55,798 nt of DNA, taken from positions 1 through 55,798 of IMG/VR virus record IMGVR_UViG_3300031994_000001, one strand, 5' to 3'. This DNA is from a virus (Duplodnaviria; Heunggongvirae; Uroviricota; Caudoviricetes). Under the pieces are notes generated by a model that was not told the origin of the DNA, made no database searches, and was given only the letters and a program-made list of their open reading frames with translations. Positions within the stretch are counted from its first letter, which is position 1, and the number at the start of each line of letters is the position of its first letter. The position numbers were made by a program, and so were the translations under genes. This document shows positions 3,901 through 20,478 of the stretch, one piece after another.

Positions 3901-5231
3901 ACAGTATGGTTATAACCGCCGCAATTAAAGTCGGTGACTTCGATACAGCGGGCAGCGGCGGTGGCGGCGGTGGCGAACAAGGTACGCAAGGAATACAAGG
4001 AGTCCAAGGTGTTCAAGGTCTCCAAGGTAAACAAGGCAGACAAGGCGTTCGCGGCTATCAAGGTTATCAAGGTGTCCAAGGTACAAGCGGCGGTGGCGGT
4101 TTGGAAGTCATTCTTCGCACAACAAAGGTTCATAACAATGTCTTCACTGTTGAGAGTGTATCTGGAATTTATCCTATTATAATAGAGCGGAACACAGTTG
4201 TTCGCATTCAGTTCAACCATAGTTTTGACCACGATTATCACGGTATGGGGTATAGTGAGCCGCAAATAATGTTCATAAAAGCATTGGATGAAAACCTTAT
4301 TATATTCAAACTTGATGACAATAGTGACTTTGATATTGGAGCATCGGATAATGAATTACCGTTATTCTATAGATATTATTGGGATAGAGGCAATGGTTTT
4401 ATGGGCGTGCCTGCTCCGATAATAGGAATAGACCCATTCAGCGGCGAAAACTATGCGATAGGTGTTAAGGGATTACAAGGTTTGACAAGAGGTGATACAC
4501 CCGCCCCGTTGTCCACACACGAATTTTTGTACACGTGTGATGTTAATTTCATCTTTAGCATTTCGGTTAATGGTCTTTATTATGGAAATTCTATGTATGG
4601 AACGGCTGCATATTATGACGGTTCTGCCGTTCCGTTCGAGTATGAGTTTAATTTGGAACATATGTCAGAAAATGTGGGTTCTGAAGCAAACACAGTAATT
4701 CGTTGGATGGAAATGGATTGTTATGGTCGCACTCGTCATTATGTTCCAACGCTTACGAAAGTCGGACATTTCAACACAGACCATTATATAAGAAGTTCTA
4801 AATCGAAAAAGGGTGCGTCCGCGCTTTATTCGGAAGAATCTGTCAACTTGGATACTCAAAACACATTGTCCTGCTCAACATCAGACACCAATGCGTCTTA
4901 CTTGTATGCCGCAGTTGAAACGGGTAAGGAAACAACGTTGAATGTTGACCTCAATGTCAACAACACATACGAGAATTATCTGTGTATCCAAAACAACGGA
5001 AAGACTGACTTGGATGTGGTGTTCAGCAGTGTCAAGTTCGGTGACGCAAAGAGTGTTGTAACGAAAGTCCCGTACACAAACGGCGTTGTTACAATCGCGG
5101 CAGGACGCTGTGTTGAGTTCTCAATCATAGGTCAAGAAGGCGGTGATGTCGTTGGAAGCAATAACGCTCTCGTTGTTGTGAAGATGAGCGACCCGATGTC
5201 AAGTATCACATTGGGGGAGATTGAAAAATAA
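3..5231 (+). CDS. Large collagen-like (Gly-X-Gln) virion/fibre protein, 5' partial
   Basis: Frame is open from the window edge; >100 G-X-Q triplets, a second short GXQ tract near 3978-4085, and three related globular domains ending in K[IV]G[HD]F[DN]T. Confidence 0.8.
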
Positions 5232-5644: not shown

Positions 5645-7075
5645 ATGAAAATACTTAACACGAAAGACTACGAAAGCGAATTGCTCGAAGGCAGAAATTC
5701 TGTCGGAGCAAAGTTGGGCAACAGCACGGAAGTGATTGACCCCGATAAGCCTGCGGGTGAAAACGAAACCATTGCAAGTATCGGCAAGACTGTTGTCAAA
5801 CTTGACAACTATGACGACTTCGAGGGAAAGCGTGCAGACAAGAACCCGTCACACGGTATGTTCTCTGTTGACGCTCCGTTGGAGTACAGCAAGAAACTGT
5901 TTACCGACAAGAAAGTTTGGAACGACAACCTTGAGGATTTGTTTGACGCAATCAAGGGTAAATCCGATTTCTTCGTTCAAGGTGAAGCGGGTTGGGCTAA
6001 AACCGCCCTCATTACACAAATGGCTAACAAGTGCGGATATACCGTTATCACGGTTTATTTGGACAAGGCTGTACCAGAGGATTTGGACGGACTTCCTGCC
6101 GTCAGAGAGGACAAGAACAGACAGAGCGGAATCGTGCAAGTGCGTGCGCTTCCCGTTTGGGCGCAGTATATGCTTGACCGCCCCAATGAAAAATTCCTCT
6201 TGTTCTTTGACGAAATGAACCAAGCAACAAGTGACGTTATGCACTCACTTATGCCTATCGTTCTGAAGCACGTCATCGGCGGTATCGAATTTGACAACTA
6301 CTTCTGTGGCGGTGCAGGTAATATGAGTTATGAGGATAACACCCTCGAATCAATCCCGAAGGCTCTTATGAGCCGTATGGGTGGTGCGCCTATCACTTGG
6401 ATTACGGGTACTCCCGAAGCGTGGAAAGAGGCGTTTGAATACCTCCACGGCGAATGGGACAACCAAATCTCAAAGGAAGTTGTCAGCGCATTTGAGAGAC
6501 ACGCAACCATTTTCGCAAGCCCGCGTGACATTGAAAAGAACATCTTTAAGAATGTCGCAACAATCAAGAACTCATTTGACGAGGACGATGAGTTCAACGA
6601 AAGAGACCGTGTTTCTGTCGGTTCTTTGGAACGCCGTATCAAGAGGCAGACCAACACAGTCGAAGGCAGACAGTACAATATCGGTGAGGGCAACGAATAC
6701 ACCGATGCCATCGCAAGCCAAGTTAGGGAACTTGCCGAGAAATGCTACGACTTCATCAACGGAAGCAGCAGCGGCAGAAAGTTCAATGAAGAACCCGAAC
6801 AGCAGGCAGACGAAAACGCCCCTACATTTGACAAGGACGAAATCAAGAGCATCATTGACTTGATTGTGTTCGGTGAAATGTCAGTCAGCGAGGACGACCC
6901 CGACACAATGGCCCCGATTACCCACGAGACAATCTTCGATTTCTTCCCATCAATGAACAAGGAACTCCTTAACTTCATTGACAAACAAATGGCTAAAGAG
7001 GGCAAGGAATGGATGTATCCGCACAACGAAGATGCCGTTAAGACGGGTAAGTGGACTCTTGACGAACTTGAATAA
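5645..7075 (+). CDS. MoxR-like AAA+ ATPase
   Basis: Variant Walker A GEAGWAKT, Walker B LLFFDEMN, AGN sensor, ALMSRM; adjacent VWA gene. Confidence 0.8.
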   Translation: MKILNTKDYESELLEGRNSVGAKLGNSTEVIDPDKPAGENETIASIGKTVVKLDNYDDFEGKRADKNPSHGMFSVDAPLEYSKKLFTDKKVWNDNLEDLFDAIKGKSDFFVQGEAGWAKTALITQMANKCGYTVITVYLDKAVPEDLDGLPAVREDKNRQSGIVQVRALPVWAQYMLDRPNEKFLLFFDEMNQATSDVMHSLMPIVLKHVIGGIEFDNYFCGGAGNMSYEDNTLESIPKALMSRMGGAPITWITGTPEAWKEAFEYLHGEWDNQISKEVVSAFERHATIFASPRDIEKNIFKNVATIKNSFDEDDEFNERDRVSVGSLERRIKRQTNTVEGRQYNIGEGNEYTDAIASQVRELAEKCYDFINGSSSGRKFNEEPEQQADENAPTFDKDEIKSIIDLIVFGEMSVSEDDPDTMAPITHETIFDFFPSMNKELLNFIDKQMAKEGKEWMYPHNEDAVKTGKWTLDELE

Positions 7076-7092
7076 CAAATAAAAACTTTGAG

Positions 7093-7122
7093 AAAGTGCC
7101 GTCTTTAAGGCGGCATTTTTTT
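7093..7122 (+). terminator. Intrinsic terminator
   Basis: gtgccgtc-ttta-aggcggcat followed by T run. Confidence 0.7.
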
Positions 7123-7171
7123 CAATTTTTATTATATTGCACTGAACACAGTTTCTAAAATAATTGACAAT

Positions 7172-10159
7172 ATGAACAATTGGCAAAAATCAATATCAAA
7201 GATAAAGGACGAGCATACCGCTTGGAGATTCGACTTTACGAAATATCTTGACCAATCAACAAGATATAACGGGTTTCGTTTCTTTTGGGAACTTATACCT
7301 ATGATTACGTTTGTCACGGGTCATAAGGGAATCGCTTGGACTGATAAGGATGTGAACATTTTTCTCAACATACCGCACGATAAAGTGCCTATGGACGATG
7401 AAAAGTGGGAGTTCATATACTATCACGAGTGTTTGCACCAAATGTACGAGACATTTGCTGTTGAGGATACCATCAAAAGCGAGTTTGGCAGTTGCAACCA
7501 CGATTTGCTCAATGTGGCGAGTGATGTCGTAATCAACGATTATGTCAAGACCCGCTGCAATCTTGAATATCCTACCGATGGTCTTATGACACCCGAATAC
7601 ATCAAGGAGAAATTCGGCGTGGAATACGACAGAAAGACCGATGACCAATATGCTCTTTATATGAAACTCAAAGAGGTTGAGGACAAAATTGTTGACGACC
7701 CTCTTGTTCAACAGATGCGTGAGAACGCCCCTATTGTTGACATTGACGGCGGTGGTGATGTGAAGATTCCAAAAACGGTCAAGTTGCCGACAACAAGCGA
7801 GTGGAAAAAAGGAAGCAAGGAAGCGAGAAAGGCTATCAATGACATTCTTCAGAAATACTGTGACGGTATCAAAAAACAGTCCAATGGCAGAATCTCTGTA
7901 AACGATACATTGACTGCTATGAAAAAGGCTGCTGAAGAAATTGAAAAACTCGCAAAGGGTAAGTTGAAACCGACAGTAATCCAAGTTCCGCCAAACGAAT
8001 CTGCGCATTATGTTATGAACTCCGCTATGTTCATAGGTGAGTCTGACGATACGAAGAAAGAGATTTCTCCCGAATATCAGACATACGAACAAGGTTGGGA
8101 TTATGCCGTTAAAGACGTTCTCAATCAAATTAGCCAAATGATGCAAGGTTTGATGGGCGGCGGCGGTCCAGGAGGCGGCGGTGGTACGGATGATAATGAA
8201 CCTATGCACCAAGAAGTTCCCGAAAACGACCCGTCAGAAGAACAACCGTTCCTCCCGCAGACTTTGGGCGGAAGCGGTGGAAAAGGCGACCCCGATGAAG
8301 ACGATAAGGATTCAAAGGATTTAGACCATAATGACGTTTCCGATATGAACGCTGACGAGGCTGCTGACGAGGCGCAGAATGCCGCAGACAAAGCAAAGGA
8401 TAATGCTGACGGCGCACAGAGTTCCGCAGATTCCGCACAACAGAACGCAGATAGTGCCGCTTCTGATGCTGAAAGCGCAAAGAACCAACACGGAGAGGAT
8501 TCAAGCGAATACAAGAAAGCGAAGTCCAAGGCTGACAAAGCGCAGAAGAATGCCGACAAAGCAAAAGACGCTGCTAAAAAGGCAAAGGAAGCCGCAGATA
8601 AGGCGCAAGATTCCGCTGACAAAGCAAAGGACGCTGCAAGCAAAGGTGACACCGATGGGGCAAAAGACAACGCAAGAGACGCGCAGAAGGCTGCTGACGA
8701 GGCTGCTGACGAGGCTTCAAAGGCGGAAGATGCCGCAAACGGCAAGTCAAAGAAAAGCGGTCACAATGACGTTTCCAATATGAGTGCCGATGAAGCGGCT
8801 GACGAAGCGCAAGACGAAGCAGACCAAGCAAAAGAAATGGCTGACGGCGCACAAGAGGCTGCTGACAACGCACAGAGGGCTGCTGATTCCGCTGCTATGG
8901 ATGCTGAACGCGCAGGCACGGAACACGGCAAGGATTCAAGCGAATACAAGAAAGCGAAGTCCAAGGCTGACAAAGCGCAGAAGAATGCTGACAAGGCTAA
9001 ATCCGCTGCTAAAAAGGCAGGCGAATCCGCAGACCAAGCGCAGGACGCTGCTGACGCTGCAAAGGATGCTGCCGACAAAGGCGATACTGACGGCGCAAGA
9101 AACAATGCGAAGAAAGCGCAAAAGGCTGCTGACAAAACCGCTGACGAGGCTGCAAAGGCTGCTTCAGCAGAGAAAGAATCAGAAACCGAAACCGCCCGTG
9201 AAAACATCGGAGACGGTGAAGAAAATGTTGTCGGAAATGCAACCGAGGTTAATTGGGAAAGCAGCAGCCGAGACAAAGGTTGGGCTTGGAGTCAAGAAAT
9301 GGAAGACAACATTCAACGCTACGCCGAAAAACTTGGCGATATGACTTCCGAGGATGCGAAGAATGTCATTAAGAAATTCGCCCGTTCAGCGGACGGCGCA
9401 CTCGGCGAGTTCGTGCGCAAATGCGTTTCAAGCGAGGAAAAGAACAAGAAAGGTATAATTGTTCAAACTCCTATGCACAAGAGAAACGTGTCTTGGGCTG
9501 AAAAATTCAGCGAGAGTATAAAGAACACGGTTAAGCAGTATGTGAAAAGGCGTACAACCGAATGGTATGCCACTTACAGAAAGCCGAACCGCAGGCAGGG
9601 TGTTGTCAAGGATGACAGTTTCTTGAAGAAAGGCAAGATGCGCAAGAAAGACAAACTCACGATTTCTGTCGCTTTCTACATTGACATTTCTTCCTCTATG
9701 GACTCTTCATCAGTCCGTAACATATTCGACTATGTTTACAAGTTGAACGACAAGATTTACAAGCAGTACAAAGGCAACGAGGTTGTTGAAGATACCGTGT
9801 TTGACTTCTACTCATTCAACAGTTCCGTCCATAAGGAGAAACGACCCAATATTCCGAGACCGAATGGCACGACACTCCCGCTCCTTGAACTCATCAAGGA
9901 AATTGAGAAACTGTCGTTTAACCATATGATTAACGTGATTATCACGGACGCGGAAATGGGTAACTTCCCGACAGCGAAAATTAAGGCTGAAATGAAGAGT
10001 CTCCCAGGCAACATAGTGTTTATCACCGACAACACGGAGGTTGTGTCAGTTCTTTCGCCGCTTACGAGCATAACCACTTTCGGTTCAAATAAGAAGTTTG
10101 ACATAATCACAGTGCCGCACGGATTCAAGATAAGCGACAAAGACTTCAAGCAGGTATAG
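7172..10159 (+). CDS. Putative metallopeptidase (HExxH) + VWA-like protein with duplicated Ala/Asp/Lys-rich linker
   Basis: HECLH and NVASDVVIND at N-terminus, DISSS MIDAS-like motif and ITD near C-terminus (DUF2201-type architecture). Confidence 0.8.
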   Translation: MNNWQKSISKIKDEHTAWRFDFTKYLDQSTRYNGFRFFWELIPMITFVTGHKGIAWTDKDVNIFLNIPHDKVPMDDEKWEFIYYHECLHQMYETFAVEDTIKSEFGSCNHDLLNVASDVVINDYVKTRCNLEYPTDGLMTPEYIKEKFGVEYDRKTDDQYALYMKLKEVEDKIVDDPLVQQMRENAPIVDIDGGGDVKIPKTVKLPTTSEWKKGSKEARKAINDILQKYCDGIKKQSNGRISVNDTLTAMKKAAEEIEKLAKGKLKPTVIQVPPNESAHYVMNSAMFIGESDDTKKEISPEYQTYEQGWDYAVKDVLNQISQMMQGLMGGGGPGGGGGTDDNEPMHQEVPENDPSEEQPFLPQTLGGSGGKGDPDEDDKDSKDLDHNDVSDMNADEAADEAQNAADKAKDNADGAQSSADSAQQNADSAASDAESAKNQHGEDSSEYKKAKSKADKAQKNADKAKDAAKKAKEAADKAQDSADKAKDAASKGDTDGAKDNARDAQKAADEAADEASKAEDAANGKSKKSGHNDVSNMSADEAADEAQDEADQAKEMADGAQEAADNAQRAADSAAMDAERAGTEHGKDSSEYKKAKSKADKAQKNADKAKSAAKKAGESADQAQDAADAAKDAADKGDTDGARNNAKKAQKAADKTADEAAKAASAEKESETETARENIGDGEENVVGNATEVNWESSSRDKGWAWSQEMEDNIQRYAEKLGDMTSEDAKNVIKKFARSADGALGEFVRKCVSSEEKNKKGIIVQTPMHKRNVSWAEKFSESIKNTVKQYVKRRTTEWYATYRKPNRRQGVVKDDSFLKKGKMRKKDKLTISVAFYIDISSSMDSSSVRNIFDYVYKLNDKIYKQYKGNEVVEDTVFDFYSFNSSVHKEKRPNIPRPNGTTLPLLELIKEIEKLSFNHMINVIITDAEMGNFPTAKIKAEMKSLPGNIVFITDNTEVVSVLSPLTSITTFGSNKKFDIITVPHGFKISDKDFKQV

Positions 10160-11689: not shown

Positions 11690-12836
11690 AAGGAAAACAT
11701 AGTACGACAACGGCATAATCGGAGTAATCCGAGAACGCTGTTGGTCGGAAGAATCAGACGGGTCTGAAGTCCATCGTGTTTCGGCACGTTGGACTTGAAA
11801 GACCTACTTCGCAGTTCCTGCGTGAAGAGCGCAGGCAACTTGGAGTGCATCAGAGGAGTAATCCTCTTTGGCGGGAAACCCCGATGTAGAACAACCCTAA
11901 AACGGTGGACACCCTTTTGGTTAAGGAAGTAAATTGTGGATAGGAATAAGATACACCACAAGCACTAAACAATACGGTGCAAGGGCAATACCGTGCTAAA
12001 TTGAGATAAACACGATGCCAATCGGAGCAAAGAAGTAGTGTTACTGTTACGCAATATACAGAATCTCATAAACGTGTAGAGAACATAGAGGTTGCACCTA
12101 TAGTCAGAACTGTATCGCAAGTGGGTAGAGCGGGTATGACCCTTAATAACTCGTTAAATGCAGGCTTGCGGTAACTTGCAAGCGTTTCTGATATGGTGAT
12201 AATATGCCCCAGACCACAACGTAGGAGTAGAAAGGAAGCCAACCCAAATGATTATACGGTGATTGGGTTACGAATACGGCTATGGTAACATAGAGTGGCA
12301 GGCAAAATCTTCAGCCTATTGCTGCGAAGTAAATTCATCTTTGGCGGCGGTACAGAACCGCTGTCATCTATCGGCACACAGCCCCCGTAACTCGGCGGCA
12401 GCAGCCGATTCTCCATCGGCGGGCACAATCCGCCGCACACCAAATCCCCGTTGAAACGATATATACGGGTTGCAACTGTCAGCGGAGTAGGTGCTGAACA
12501 CACTGACAGCCAAAGTACCGAAAGCCTAACGATTGGCGAGATAACGATTCAAGTCCAAGAGGCATTCCGAGATGTCGTGGGAAACCGTCCGACATAGCGG
12601 AGACACTTACAATTACACGTAGGGGGTTTGCTAATTACATTTCGCAGTAAACCCAACACGGCGGTTTACTTATGTGCTATGACCTTGGCGATTGACTGCG
12701 TTTCCGCTTATAGGAGAACAGCAGAGCAGTGGCGAGAAAATGTAAAAACTGGCGCAGTGACGCTTTCGCTTACACGTTCTACATTATCCAACGGTCACAT
12801 TAGAGGCGATTGTGTCGCCTTGTGTCATAGCATATA
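11690..12836 (+). ncRNA. Large highly structured ncRNA (family unassigned; GOLLD/ROOL size class)
   Basis: No credible ORF; many GUAA/GNRA/UUCG hairpins; long-range helices 11789-11799/12548-12558 and 12671-12683/12824-12836. Confidence 0.7.
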
Positions 12837-13669: not shown

Positions 13670-13739
13670 AAGGTGTTTACAGCAGACCATAAAATCAACT
13701 GTTTCATTTATAATCATTCGTTGCTTACAAAGCACCTTG
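13670..13739 (+). ncRNA. Free-standing stem-RCAGCA element 1
   Basis: aaggtgt-ttacagcag...gcaccttg. Confidence 0.6.
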
Positions 13740-13745
13740 TGAAAC

Positions 13746-13820
13746 AGTCCTATAGTTCAACGGATAGAACGGGGGTTTCCTAAACCTCTGATGCAAGTTC
13801 GATTCTTGTTAGGACTACCA
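13746..13820 (+). tRNA. tRNA-Arg(CCT)
   Basis: ggggt-ttCCTaa-acctc, encoded CCA. Confidence 0.9.
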
Positions 13821-13905
13821 ATGATAGATTGGGATAATACTATTAGTTAATGGTTTCATTGTACAAAGCAGTCTTGTCGGCTACCTCCGATTGCCGACAA
13901 GAAAC

Positions 13906-13978
13906 GGGGGTGTAGTTCAGTCGGTAGAACGGCGGACTGTTAATCCGTAAGTCGCAGGTTCGAGTCCTGCCGCCCCCG
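13906..13978 (+). tRNA. tRNA-Asn(GTT)
   Basis: gcgga-ctGTTaa-tccgt. Confidence 0.92.
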
Positions 13979-14157
13979 CAAAGCCGAGGTTGTGGTTCCA
14001 GCAGCCCGCGTGAGGCGCAAGTAGCGCGGTTGCAAGAGGTGTCGTGTCCGAGCAGTCCGCAAGGAAATCGTGGCGTTTAACCACGTTGCACGGTTGGCAC
14101 GGCTTAATAAGATTGGATGAGGGTCGGACAACGAGTGTCCGATGTGTAGGCTTTAAT

Positions 14158-14229
14158 CTTTCCGTAGTTCAACGAATAGAACGTTAGTTTACGGAACTAA
14201 AGATTGGGGTTTGAATCCCTGCGGGAAGA
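14158..14229 (+). tRNA. tRNA-Arg(ACG)
   Basis: ttagt-ttACGga-actaa. Confidence 0.85.
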
Positions 14230-14233
14230 CTAA

Positions 14234-14301
14234 AAGGTGCATACAGCAAACTATAACAGCATCAAACTTTTAATTTGAACTTCGCTAAACCAAGCACCTT
14301 G
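14234..14301 (+). ncRNA. Free-standing stem-RCAGCAA element 2 with Lys(TTT)-like anticodon stem-loop
   Basis: aaggtgc-atacagcaa...tcaaa-ctTTTaa-tttga...gcaccttg. Confidence 0.7.
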
Positions 14302-14350
14302 TTTTTCTTTGACTGCTGATTTTTTTTGTATTTTTCATAATTGTAGAGAA

Positions 14351-14402
14351 AAGATGTATGCAGCAATCCACGGAACGCAAATGAGTTTCTTTCAGCATCT
14401 TG
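14351..14402 (+). ncRNA. Free-standing stem-RCAGCAA element 3
   Basis: aagatgt-atgcagcaa...gcatcttg. Confidence 0.65.
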
Positions 14403-14455
14403 TTTCTTTTGTAAAATGCAAAAAATCAAAAAGATATATGAACTCACGCGGTTCT

Positions 14456-14529
14456 GGCCCCTTGGCGCAGTTGGTTAGCGCAACTGACTCATAATCAGAA
14501 GGTCGTAGGTTCAAGTCCTACAGGGGCCA
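14456..14529 (+). tRNA. tRNA-CAT, probably Ile2 (lysidine type)
   Basis: ctga-ctCATaa-tcag; ggcccct acceptor resembles bacterial Ile2. Confidence 0.85.
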
Positions 14530-14900
14530 CTTGTGGGAATGCGACCGAGACTGTAAAGCCAACTTCGTTTCCAACGACACAAAGTGCAGTTTTTATGATA
14601 TAAGTAATAAACGAGAATGTCTATCGGCTCTCAATCAGCATTGCTGACGGCTTTTGCCCCGCCGAGTTTTATGGTTTCCTGCACTTTTTTCCGATGGCTG
14701 AATAGCATAAACGGAAATGCGTCAATGCCGAAGTCAAGATGTGGGGTGTGGTGACACATCACCGTTCTGAAAATGGGGCGGGTATAATTCTGAAAAGTCG
14801 GGTTATAATGTTCGTTTTTCACGGTTGTTAGTCAACCACCCGATGAAATAGGCTCTTGCTTTGGCGAAGATTCAGAGGTTCGATTCCTCTGTCAGCCTCA

Positions 14901-14966
14901 AAGATACACACAGCAATCATTAAATCATAAAAAATTGTTGTTTAAGTTTTTTACCACAGTATCTTG
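14901..14966 (+). ncRNA. Free-standing stem-RCAGCAA element 4
   Basis: aagatac-acacagcaa...gtatcttg. Confidence 0.65.
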
Positions 14967-14978
14967 TTTTCTTTATAA

Positions 14979-15097
14979 TGGGAGATAGTGTAACGGAAGC
15001 ACACGTAATTTTTCGGTTCTTGTCAAAGAATTATGCAGCAAACAATAAAATTTGCTTTTGGGTAGCCGTGGTGTGGGTTCGATTCCCGCTCTCCCAA
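14979..15097 (+). tRNA. tRNA-Pro(TGG)-like with 48-nt insertion in the anticodon stem
   Basis: tgggaga/tctccca acceptor; cg[15006-15053]gct-ttTGGgt-agccg. Confidence 0.8.
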
Positions 15098-15103
15098 CAA
15101 AAC

Positions 15104-15175
15104 GGAGCATTAGGCTTAATGGTAAACTGACGGACTGTCTATCCGATGTTACGGGTTCGAATCCCGTATGTTCCG
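15104..15175 (+). tRNA. tRNA-Asp(GTC)
   Basis: cgga-ctGTCta-tccg. Confidence 0.85.
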
Positions 15176-15270
15176 CAAACGAAGTGACGTTTAATGCTGT
15201 ATAAGCGGAATTTTCCTGCGGCTCGAAAGTCGCGAATTTCGTGTCGCTGAAAGCAACCTATCCTTTGTCA

Positions 15271-15372
15271 GTATCTGTAGTGGCGAAGCATTGGTGAGAT
15301 TCCAATGTGGAGATGTCGGTCAGAACGTGAGGAAAAACCTCAAGGGCGCGGGTTCGACTCCTGCCAGATACG
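15271..15372 (+). ncRNA. tRNA-like RNA (acceptor + T arm, non-canonical core)
   Basis: gtatctg/cagatac, gcggg-ttcgact-cctgc; no recognisable anticodon arm. Confidence 0.65.
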
Positions 15373-15390
15373 CAATGTGAACTTATAGTG

Positions 15391-15812
15391 AAACATCTGT
15401 TGGAGGTAGGCTTGAGAGTAGCCATCCTTTAAAGAGTTGCGAGAGGTAGTAACTATATATGCGTGCGCAGCGTTGATTTAGGGTTACAAGAAACACCGTG
15501 GCAGGTAACTTGGTCGCTACGGGTCCCCTCACGGAGTCATAAGCACAAATGCCCGATGTCCAATTTTTAGTCTGAAATGGCGAAGTTTCCTTTGGGCGTG
15601 ACGGATTATTTAGGTGTCGGAGACAAGTATGACAGATAAGGTGCAACAGTACGGGAGGAGACTGCACTTAACATTTAACCATCGTGAATGGTATGGTGGA
15701 CGGGAAATGACGAAATTCCCGCACGCCGTGGGTGCATCAAGTTAAGCCCACGCTTGAATGTCTGTGGAACAGCCGTTGGAGCATTTGGTGTAAAAACACA
15801 CAACTGATGTTT
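15391..15812 (+). ncRNA. 23S rRNA factor-binding-centre mimic (split H43/H44 plus sarcin-ricin-like loop)
   Basis: GGAGGTAGGCTTGAGAGTAGCCATCCTTTAAAGAG ... GTGTAAAAACACAC closed by gttg/caac and aaacatc/gatgttt; internal gtgca-acAGTACGGGAGGAgac-tgcac. Confidence 0.75.
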
Positions 15813-15909
15813 TCTTTGACATAAGGGGTTTATAGATACCTACGGCAACCCATACAAAACTCAAACCGAAAAATTTGATTGACAATGTATCTTGTTACCC
15901 TTTTTTGAT

Positions 15910-15980
15910 AGGGATATGGTGTAACGGTAGCACAACAGATTTTGGTTCTGTTGGTCAAGGTTCGAATCCTTGTATCCCCG
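15910..15980 (+). tRNA. tRNA-Gln(TTG)
   Basis: acaga-ttTTGgt-tctgt. Confidence 0.9.
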
Positions 15981-16018
15981 CTAATGCACAACACATAACA
16001 CATTGCGCAACACAACAA

Positions 16019-16089
16019 TGGGCTATGGTGTAATGGTAGCACAACAGATTTTGGTTCTGTTGGTCAAGGTTCGAATCCTTGTAGCCCAA
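16019..16089 (+). tRNA. tRNA-Gln(TTG) second copy
   Basis: Same anticodon and T arm, different acceptor stem. Confidence 0.9.
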
Positions 16090-16094
16090 CGATA

Positions 16095-16445
16095 CGGTGA
16101 ATTGCACACCGTCTATCCAAGTGCAGCAGGCTTGCACCGAAGCCGACAGACACGTGATGAGATAAGTATAATAATTTTGTTGTCGGCTGTTTGGGTGACG
16201 AACCCGCAAAAGTGTCAAGTGACATTCCCGTTAGCAGACGGAGAGAGCCGAAGGCGGTAGTCGGTTGCGGAATAGTTCCTAACGGTGGTATCTGCGTGAT
16301 GGGTCTATCCATTCGCCGAACAAGGGTTTGATACCATATAGCGCAGGAATAACGCCTGCGGTTTGCATCGCGGGTGTTTGTATCAAACAGAAAGGGTTCA
16401 CCGCAGCAGTGAAAGGTGGTTGAAAGTGTGCAATGCTTTCAATGT
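16095..16445 (+). ncRNA. Unassigned structured RNA
   Basis: cggtgaa/ttcaccg long-range pairing plus multiple hairpins, no credible ORF. Confidence 0.45.
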
Positions 16446-16457
16446 GCTGTAACTTAT

Positions 16458-16533
16458 GGGGCGGTAGCGTAGGTGGTTATTTGCGCGTTGGTCTGAAAAA
16501 CCAAAGGCGGTTGTTCAACTCAACCCCGCCCCA
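16458..16533 (+). tRNA. tRNA-Phe(GAA)
   Basis: ttggt-ctGAAaa-accaa. Confidence 0.88.
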
Positions 16534-16538
16534 CAATA

Positions 16539-16602
16539 AAGGTGATAACAGCAATTTTTTTAGAACATCAAACTGTAACTTTGAAATGTCTAATTCACCT
16601 TG
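16539..16602 (+). ncRNA. Free-standing stem-RCAGCAA element 5 with Tyr(GTA)-like anticodon stem-loop
   Basis: aaggtga-taacagcaa...tcaaa-ctGTAac-tttga...tcaccttg. Confidence 0.7.
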
Positions 16603-16638: not shown

Positions 16639-17142
16639 ATGATTTTCGAGACACTTGACAAACACATTGCGGACGCTATGTTCGAGGAAAAGAACAGCAC
16701 CGCGAAGTTGAAAACGAATTTTTGGAAAGGCGTTAAGACCGAAATGGTGAACGCCGTCCACAACGGAGTGAAACTTCCGAATGACGAGGAAGAAACGAAG
16801 ATTCTCCGTTCAATGCTGAAGCGATGCCGCACGGCTGCGCAGGAGTTTGCCAAGGCAGGTGACGATAACAAAGTCGCTGTCGAAAACAGAAAGGTAAACG
16901 AGTTCGAGGCTGCTGAACTTGAAAAACTCCTGCCGAAAGAGCCTACCGTTGAGGAAGTGTATAATGAGACGGTCAAGCAGGTTGATATGTTCGTTGCCGA
17001 GAAACTTGGCGAGGACGAGAATTTCAGCGTCAAACAACTACAACGCTTCACAAAGGACATCATTGCGAAAGTCAAGGCTAAATACCCCAACGCGAACAAC
17101 GGTGTCATTGCGAATGTCGTGAAAGAGATTGCCAACAAGTAG
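16639..17142 (+). CDS. yqeY: GatB/YqeY domain protein
   Basis: IADAM...ILRSMLKR...AAQEFAKAG...E.AELEKLLPKE...VIANVVKE pattern. Confidence 0.8.
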   Translation: MIFETLDKHIADAMFEEKNSTAKLKTNFWKGVKTEMVNAVHNGVKLPNDEEETKILRSMLKRCRTAAQEFAKAGDDNKVAVENRKVNEFEAAELEKLLPKEPTVEEVYNETVKQVDMFVAEKLGEDENFSVKQLQRFTKDIIAKVKAKYPNANNGVIANVVKEIANK

Positions 17143-17345: not shown

Positions 17346-17465
17346 GCGGACATAGTTTAATGGTAGAACGCGATAATCACAACGGTTCTTGACAAGAATT
17401 ATGCAGCAACTTTTTCGATTCGGTATTCCAAACCCGAAGTGCAGGTTCGAATCCTGCTGTCCGCT
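17346..17465 (+). tRNA. tRNA-Gly(TCC)-like with 49-nt insertion in the anticodon stem
   Basis: gcggaca/tgtccgc, U73; cg[17373-17421]ggt-atTCCaa-acccg. Confidence 0.78.
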
Positions 17466-17480: not shown

Positions 17481-17599
17481 GGGGGTGTAGTTCAATTGGT
17501 AGAATGCGTATTTAACGCACCTCGTAAGAGGTACACGCAGCAAACTTTTTCTATGGTCTGTCACACCCGTGGTTGTAGGTTCGAGTCCTGCCGCCCCCG
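17481..17599 (+). tRNA. tRNA-Asp(GTC)-like with 46-nt insertion in the anticodon stem
   Basis: gggggtg/cgccccc, G73; cg[17509-17554]ggt-ctGTCac-acccg. Confidence 0.8.
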
Positions 17600-19621: not shown

Positions 19622-19649
19622 GGGGTTGTAATTCAATGGTAGAGCATCG
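19622..19649 (+). pseudogene. tRNA 5' fragment truncated by endonuclease cassette
   Basis: ggggttg-ta-attcaatggtagagc-atcg then TATAAATA (19650-19657). Confidence 0.6.
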
Positions 19650-19674
19650 TATAAATATTATAAAAAATGATATT

Positions 19675-20478
19675 ATGTATGTATGCAAATATTGTGGAAA
19701 AGAATTAAAAAGACCTTGTGCATTGGGAATACACGAGCGTACTTGTAAAAACAACCCAAACCGAAAACCTTTGGAAAAACACGTATGTGGTTATGGCATA
19801 TATCGTGCAAAAACATCAAATGTTGAAGATAATAGAAGATGTAAGTTTTGTGGAAAGGCTTGTAAAAATGAGAATTCTTGTCAAAATCACGAGCGTACTT
19901 GTCCTAAAAATCCAGATAGGAAGTATGTCAATGGTATGAAAGGAAAACCTGCTTGGAATAAAGGTTTGACAAAGGAAACTGATTCTCGTGTTGCAAAATC
20001 CGCAAATACATTAAAACAAAGATATGCTGATAAAATATATACATCACCGTCAAAGGGTAAATCAATGTCAGAAGAGCAAAAGAAAAAAATTTCAGATACA
20101 ATGAAACGGTATTTATCTGATAATCCAAGCAAAACACCGTATGTGTTAAATCATCATTCGCACGGTGATAGTTATCCAGAAAAATATTTTAAAAGTATTT
20201 TTGATTTTAATAATATAAAATATGAACAAAATTATTTTACTTGTGGTTATTTTTTGGATTTTGCTTTTGTTGATTCTAAACAATATATTGAAATTGACGG
20301 GGAACAGCACTATGTTGACAATAGGATAGTGAAACACGATAAAATACGAACAGATAAATTACTTAAAAACGGATGGGAATGTATTATGCGTGTTCGTTGG
20401 AGTGAATATAAAAAAATGGAAAAATCAGAACAAGAAGAATTTGTTACAAATATGATTAAATTAATAATGTCGCGGTAG
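19675..20478 (+). CDS. Free-standing homing-type endonuclease (Zn fingers, NUMOD3-like motifs, DUF559/Vsr-like nuclease)
   Basis: Two CxxC..HERTC fingers, KGKPAWNKGLTKE and MSEEQKKKISD motifs, FLDFA..YIEIDGEQH..HDKIRTDKL..GW; visibly more AT-rich than flanks. Confidence 0.8.
   Translation: MYVCKYCGKELKRPCALGIHERTCKNNPNRKPLEKHVCGYGIYRAKTSNVEDNRRCKFCGKACKNENSCQNHERTCPKNPDRKYVNGMKGKPAWNKGLTKETDSRVAKSANTLKQRYADKIYTSPSKGKSMSEEQKKKISDTMKRYLSDNPSKTPYVLNHHSHGDSYPEKYFKSIFDFNNIKYEQNYFTCGYFLDFAFVDSKQYIEIDGEQHYVDNRIVKHDKIRTDKLLKNGWECIMRVRWSEYKKMEKSEQEEFVTNMIKLIMSR

Follow-up and report, generated by a model that had tools for sequence, protein, structure and literature searches.

A conserved family of small handle RNAs in the tRNA cluster of a 413-kb phage, probable partners of a Ro60-like DUF2828 protein

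The Y RNAs of the YrlA type (RF02553; Chen et al. 2014, PMC4201824) are small RNAs with pairing ends, which carry a conserved protein-facing motif beside the 5' strand and a modular tRNA-like cargo, permuted in order among relatives, and which are partnered by Ro60, a ring-fold protein. These systems are linked to RtcB or an RNA ligase and to a divergent regulator, and are carried by phages (PMC7790460; Thermus phage phiLo Ro60-Yrl, PMC12135203); in Salmonella, tRNAs cleaved within the anticodon loop switch on the rsr-yrlBA-rtcBA operon (PMC7790460). The Class I RNAs of dictyostelids (RF01414; Kjellin et al. 2021, PMC7919456) are ~60 nt long, start with AAG, join their ends by a short stem, bear by the 5' strand an unpaired motif ending in C-x-x-C-A-A, and occur in many copies with a variable interior. 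Finally, the tRNA-Lys that phage T5 sets against PARIS (PMC11464382) lies in a tRNA cluster and centres on the Lys anticodon stem-loop. These traits of structure, gene neighbourhood and location recur in a family of short elements, here called handle units, found in a stretch of 55,798 nucleotides (the window; IMG/VR record IMGVR_UViG_3300031994_000001, positions 1 to 55,798). The window makes up the first 55.8 kb of a phage genome of 413 kb, for which sheep and cattle gut predominate among the source runs. The family is real, conserved and apparently undescribed, with a putative function; its RNAs are probably Y-RNA-like ribonucleoprotein partners of a Ro60-like DUF2828 protein.

A free unit is 52–70 nt long and consists of AAG-N4, a 2-nt spacer, the motif RCAGCAR, a cargo, and the complementary N4-CTT followed by G. 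The ends are joined by a 7-bp helix and the motif is unpaired. All free units of the window lie inside the tRNA cluster, and no open reading frame follows them directly:

12.8-27 kb, + strand: 36 called tRNA genes, with several non-coding elements interspersed
13670-13739, + strand: unit 1, handle helix and ACAGCAG, no canonical anticodon arm, a conserved Asn-like CTGTTTC stretch
14234-14301, + strand: unit 2, handle, ACAGCAA, a 12-nt linker and a Lys(UUU) arm at 14262-14278
14351-14402, + strand: unit 3, handle and GCAGCAA, the cargo a 5-bp hairpin with an 8-nt non-anticodon loop
14901-14966, + strand: unit 4, handle and ACAGCAA, an A/U-rich cargo with no canonical arm
15833-15894, + strand: unit 6, degenerate, handle with ACGGCAA, the same arm stem and an 8-nt Phe-like loop (15861-15878)
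16539-16602, + strand: unit 5, handle, ACAGCAA, a 13-nt linker and a Tyr(GUA) arm at 16568-16584
Genome 133736-133791: a seventh free unit, lone, between a promoter-like T/A-rich box and an open reading frame

Units 1 to 5 had been listed in a first-pass annotation made from the sequence; all are present where it placed them, and the sixth, the seventh and the embedded copies described below extend its list. A pairing scan (AAG-N3, RCAGCAR and a perfect complement downstream) found five units between 12.5 and 18 kb against a mean of 0.002, and a maximum of 1, in 500 dinucleotide shuffles. The covariation that the annotation had seen in the stems was borne out when 14 copies, drawn from this phage and two relatives, were aligned: pairing in the 7-bp helix reaches 99%, and four of its pairs have changed on both sides; sliding the alignment by 1–3 columns lowers pairing to 32–50%. 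In a pairing-blind test on loci chosen by their protein gene, the unit's own partner paired with the motif in 55 of 70 cases and swapped partners in 11. Single units fold little better than their shuffles (z -2.0 to +0.4), and the structural evidence is therefore comparative. The Lys arm of unit 2 and the Tyr arm of unit 5 are perfect 5-bp/7-nt hairpins, as had been claimed; in minimum free energy folds the Lys arm forms, and the Tyr arm is rivalled by an alternative fold.

Four units begin within 4 nt of the 3' end of a tRNA or tRNA-like element, again as first described. Unit 1 is flanked by tRNA-Ala and tRNA-Arg(CCU) and has an orthologue in the closest relative (L241), units 2 and 5 directly follow tRNA-Arg(ACG) and tRNA-Phe, and unit 4 begins directly 3' of a tRNA-like shell; unit 3 at 14351 alone touches no tRNA end. 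Together with the T-rich runs after four units, this position would suit cis-acting terminators, or signals for processing or stabilising tRNA 3' ends, that yield no separate RNA. Such a role is decidedly improbable. With a short GC-rich hairpin, a 3–8-nt loop and a U tract taken as the definition, no window unit is called an intrinsic terminator, and the enclosed region is 28–46 nt long. Rumen metatranscriptome contigs give low cover, inside longer pieces, of units 1, 3 and 4 and of portions of units 2 and 5, and they continue through the units into the next gene. The handle also occurs inside tRNA bodies and in bacterial tandem arrays, and a selected unpaired motif and anticodon loops would be superfluous for termination.

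The embedded form, in which the handle helix is a hairpin followed by RCAGCAA, is found in three tRNA bodies of the window and in many other phages. The insertion site is the 5' strand of the anticodon stem, and the anticodon loop is left undamaged:

14979-15097, + strand: embedded copy, handle hairpin and GCAGCAA, Pro(UGG)-type loop intact
17346-17465, + strand: embedded copy in a tRNA-Gly(UCC)-like body, the loop with A32 (read by eye)
17481-17599, + strand: embedded copy in a tRNA-Asp(GUC)-like body
Genome ~196770-196930, 224828-224945, 224951-225068 and 226684-226813: embedded tRNA-like genes outside the window, two of the four directly after an RNA ligase gene

The strand order of the free units is permuted relative to the embedded form, which the earlier reading had stated correctly. 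A third topology, seen in relatives (L010), has a terminal handle around an anticodon arm, a T arm, a looped acceptor stem and a D arm, and is the embedded form circularly permuted. For 19 of 31 free units (23% in shuffles) the anticodon loop starts 12–18 nt past the motif, and in the embedded copies of the window it starts 14–15 nt past it; this similar linker suggests that the display geometry is fixed. In two further relatives, L011 and the giant-virus contig L019, tandem handle strands make the free and hairpin topologies overlap.

The tRNAs interrupted by embedded copies have intact duplicates elsewhere in the cluster, which would accord with decayed tRNA genes, self-splicing introns or DNA-level repeats. 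This reading is hardly credible and is largely refuted by the strict strand bias, the compensatory changes, the spread over very different phages and bacteria, and the lack of any Rfam intron or ribozyme match; that no RNA contig joint skips an insertion is weak further evidence.

A protein partner was indicated by gene neighbourhood. The RNA pattern alone, run against 185,579 prokaryote genomes, gave 61 loci. A DUF2828/DUF7788 gene is present at 51 of these, mostly 13–55 nt past the last unit, and eight of the ten loci that lack it resemble chance matches; a WYL-type regulator is found at 44 of the 61 and RtcB at 32. In this the bacterial loci run parallel to the rsr-yrlBA-rtcBA operon of Salmonella. 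Of 79 viral DUF2828 loci, a unit lies on the gene strand at 40 and on the opposite strand at none. The present phage encodes a member of the family as well, and so does mycobacteriophage LeBron (L249):

Genome 211210-212730: DUF2828 gene of this phage, with an RNA ligase as the second open reading frame downstream
LeBron 4400-4780: three handle units after the DUF2828 gene

A second RNA ligase gene of this genome lies just ahead of two embedded handle copies. The AlphaFold model of the DUF2828 protein has a pLDDT (predicted local distance difference test) of 92.7, and the 13 best Foldseek matches to it are all Ro60/TROVE. VIA-align matched the model with 1yvp over its whole length (Z 20.3, root mean square deviation 4.0, 427 residues). 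By its model, then, the phage DUF2828 protein is a Ro60 ring fold. The likeness is seen by fold comparison only, a PDB sequence search with a DUF2828 protein returning no Ro60. Neither a canonical TROVE (PF05731) Ro60 gene nor an RtcB gene was found in this genome. DUF2828 homologues occur in 711 deposited phage records, including Felix O1-like phages, KVP40, A511, LeBron and others, and Felix O1-like phages possess handle RNAs as LeBron does; some are annotated as Ro-like RNA-binding proteins, and the LeBron protein is moderately toxic when overexpressed (PMC13148394). The literature searched contained no relevant treatment of DUF2828. The protein-recognition handle proposed in the first-pass annotation thus has a candidate partner, by gene neighbourhood and by its presence in the genome, to which it would bind.

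The last unit of a bacterial locus often stops just a few bases ahead of the DUF2828 ribosome-binding site, as it would if the protein bound a handle in its own mRNA and free copies were titrating sponges or remnants. The seventh unit of this genome, ahead of an open reading frame, may be a leader element. As an account of the family such autoregulation is improbable, since the window units precede no open reading frame, the leader of the phage DUF2828 gene has no handle and the conserved cargo would go unexplained.

When the units are held against the YrlA model, agreement is partial. The helix of 5' and 3' ends is there (7 bp, covarying), and, in the broader sense of a Ro60-Y RNA system, a protein with a predicted Ro60 fold is linked genetically, its gene lying in this genome and adjacent to the units in relatives. 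The GNCGAAN0-1G motif bound by Rsr is absent from all six window units, the motif here being RCAGCAA in place of GNCGAA. The YrlA domain of T arm, closed acceptor stem and D arm is found in some relatives, and no T arm occurs in the free units of the window. RF02553 (gathering score 69 bits) does not match the units, and the best-scoring relatives of the units reach 39.6–39.8 bits; the 39.8 bits belong to a LeBron unit that encloses a YrlA-like T-acceptor-D domain, fits the model in that tRNA-like domain only, and represents the third topology minus the anticodon arm. The protein, with 10–17% identity to solved Ro60s and no PF05731 match, and the regulator, WYL rather than RtcR, differ too. 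Handle cargo often includes a true anticodon loop, which YrlA lacks, and the handle is also inserted into tRNA bodies; the present genome, unlike Ro60/YrlA systems, has as many as a dozen copies at a great distance from the protein gene. Lacking GNCGAA, the T/D domain, an Rfam match and a TROVE gene, the system is Ro60-Y-like yet not YrlA.

The Class I RNAs provide the second comparison. In length (52–70 nt against ~42–65 nt), AAG start and short terminal stem (7 bp) the units agree with them. Within the 11-nt Class I motif, C6, C9 and A10 are present in five of five units, A11 in four and T3 in two; T3 is found in 167 of 343 family members. The 3' end is CUUGU in the window units and CUGU in Class I and many relatives. 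RF01414 (gathering score 41.5 bits) does not match the window units, and relatives from other phages match it over its full length at 28–35 bits, below gathering. Class I RNAs have been reported from dictyostelids only, their known direct binder is an RRM protein and no anticodon cargo has been described for them. In Rfam as a whole the units had no match at gathering score nor at E values up to 5, and no description of the family was found in Rfam or the literature searched, though some key reviews may mention it.

The cargo is where the units resemble tRNAs. With T loops excluded, since these can read as Ser(CGA) arms, a canonical anticodon arm is present in 30 of 96 viral units (1.6 expected from shuffles; 5 on the reverse strand) and in 11 of 69 bacterial units (0.75 expected; 0 on the reverse strand). 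An enrichment of anticodon loops across homologs, for which the first-pass annotation had asked, is therefore found. A search blind to the anticodon was built on two common arm stems and returned 123 units once redundancy was removed. Foremost among them is Lys(UUU) with 63 arms, followed by Thr(UGU) with 12, Ser(GCU) with 10, Asn(GUU) with 6 and Tyr(GUA) with 2; Lys(UUU) makes up 4% of the tRNA genes at the same loci. U36 is found in 82% of the 123 arms against 35% of these tRNA genes, and what remains is biased towards loops with A36, such as Ser(UGA). The Lys share of about half persists at 70% de-replication and across 48 handle stems, and Lys(UUU) also leads a stem-blind set (7 of 31). 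With the pattern-matched units taken out, which under-counts Lys by design, arms are still present in 57 of 270 units against 8.6 expected. As the stems were picked from examples already seen and the units are kin rather than independent, the p-values for the Lys and U36 bias are overstated.

Individual units were compared with those of the closest relative. In the L241 orthologue of unit 2 the Lys loop is preserved, whereas arm stem and handle have both undergone compensatory changes, which argues for selection on the loop. Units 2, 5 and 6 share an arm stem on which relatives bear loops for Asp, Thr, Asn or Ser. A single base separates the Tyr loop of unit 5 from an Asp loop on this stem in L241; Tyr is thus probably no family trait. 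Bacterial loci (L020-L080) depart from the Lys bias of phages in that the unit closest to the start of DUF2828 frequently displays an arm for Asn(GUU) or Asp(GUC) (10 of 21 arms).

The first-pass annotation had taken the units for decoys, that is, substrates that compete for the anticodon nucleases of the host, PrrC, PARIS AriB and PtuAB among them. That this is the chief job of the family, and that the displayed bait is a decoy for anticodon nucleases specifically, we regard as less likely than not. The concentration on Lys(UUU) speaks for it, as does the fact that AriB cleaves tRNA-Lys and recognises its anticodon stem-loop (PMC11464382); competitive inhibition of a nuclease has been suggested before for YrlA (PMC7790460), and the reading is compatible with a ribonucleoprotein. 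Against it stand the dependence of the Lys figure on pre-chosen stems and related units and a bias towards U36 and then A36 loops, which t6A and i6A modification enzymes would fit too. The phage's own tRNA-Lys moreover carries a loop identical to that of unit 2, and the handle is also found in repair operons of bacteria, a setting in which anti-defence would not be expected. T5-type anti-nuclease tRNAs are functional and cleavage-resistant and replace those of the host, and the units, having no acceptor arms, cannot decode. Of the earlier inference, the shared handle and an anticodon display above chance have stood. The uniform make-up has not, as a canonical arm is found in only about one fifth to one third of family units, the others holding T/D arms, whole tRNA bodies or nothing recognisable; nor has Tyr(GUA) as a family trait.

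The main alternative to a decoy role is a tether or scaffold, in which the RNA connects the Ro-like protein with a cargo-recognising host enzyme, be it PNPase, a ligase or a tRNA-modifying enzyme. Parallels exist in the RYPER of Deinococcus and of a Thermus phage, and in the latter Ro60 and Yrl RNAs bind and attenuate host PNPase (PMC12135203). The diversity of the cargo, with T arms in 22 of 69 bacterial units, and the frequent adjacency of RtcB or a ligase also suit it. By itself tethering does not explain a concentration on Lys(UUU) that is kept under compensatory stem changes, and we regard it as rather unlikely. SerRS ignores the anticodon, and the frequency of Ser loops therefore speaks against synthetases being the general target. 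The other readings, namely terminator, leader and intron, fit poorly.

Several observations weigh against a dedicated ribonucleoprotein that displays tRNA parts. The contig cover fits transcription of the tRNA cluster, and discrete RNAs or ends are not resolvable from it; the RNA runs were available as contigs only, with no silent-region control and scattered cover only from a size-fractionated run, and depth and ends were therefore not used as evidence for discrete RNAs. The DUF2828 gene lies ~195 kb from the handle RNAs of this genome. Phage G003, 93% complete, has a unit and no DUF2828, and none was seen in the closest relatives, represented by fragments only; the partner may thus be host-derived or non-obligate. 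Units 2 and 5 carry the canonical arm of a known nuclease-target tRNA, and units 1, 3 and 4 have neither such an arm nor any recognisable tRNA part. Finally, the bacterial set derives from a single narrow pattern, and related rumen Clostridia predominate in it.

The Y-RNA-like reading is nevertheless the one we favour, as probable. In it, the units would be genes for RNAs of ~50–70 nt, co-transcribed with the tRNA cluster and probably released through the processing of adjacent tRNA ends. The terminal 7-bp helix, well founded in covariation, and the unpaired RCAGCAA would form the binding handle for the phage's own DUF2828 protein. Some 11–13 nt past the handle, a spacing observed directly, an exchangeable tRNA part would be presented, be it a bare anticodon arm, T/D arms or, in the permuted forms, a whole tRNA. 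The particle would most likely act in tRNA damage and repair, where it would present something tRNA-like, as bait or as substrate, to host enzymes directed at the anticodon. With both ends clamped by the handle, the halves of a cut loop would be kept in place for a ligase to join. A bolder scheme is a recyclable anti-defence particle, in which the RNAs and DUF2828 offer Lys(UUU) and other loops to host anticodon nucleases and hold the cut halves while the neighbouring ligase reseals them, the same handle family being the prokaryotic and viral source of the amoebal Class I RNAs; in its entirety this is unlikely.

Other elements of the cluster were also recorded. Between 15381 and 15817 lies a structured RNA of ~435 nt with contig depths of ~1000 and ~350 in two rumen metatranscriptome studies. 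We take its ends to resemble the split L11-binding domain of 23S rRNA; a BLASTN comparison of this putative mimic with E. coli gave no match. Sequences like the sarcin-ricin loop occur at 12226, 14054 and 15322, the last inside a tRNA-like shell (~15268-15375) conserved in L241, and may be further mimics of translation RNAs. RNA-contig joints of 3' end to 5' end were seen for 13980-14154, 15177-15373 and 15386-15817, one with an added CA, which suggests that these spacer RNAs are circularised or self-ligated after processing; a library artefact is possible. The shell preceding unit 4 (14696-14900), also conserved in L241, has an anticodon arm extended by ~120 nt. Protein-coding genes in and around the cluster include the following:

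5645-10159: upstream of the cluster, an AAA ATPase, and a long protein whose motifs resemble those of metallopeptidases and vWA domains
16639-17142: YqeY-like protein (PHROG: tRNA amidotransferase), in the tRNA cluster right after unit 5
19636-20478: 280-aa open reading frame, zinc-finger/endonuclease-like, running into tRNA-Lys(UUU) (by eye)

In a cattle-gut strain an 803-nt replacement is found at the tRNA-Tyr that follows the YqeY-like gene.

For the DUF2828 family, so far annotated merely as RNA-binding or Ro-like, a candidate RNA partner can now be offered, and a second Ro-Y RNA system with a recognition motif of its own is indicated. The concentration on Lys(UUU) makes an old question directly testable in laboratory phages, namely whether bait RNAs, besides resistant tRNAs, are deployed against tRNA-cutting immunity. 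The likeness to the Class I RNAs of Dictyostelium provides a lead on those unexplained RNAs.

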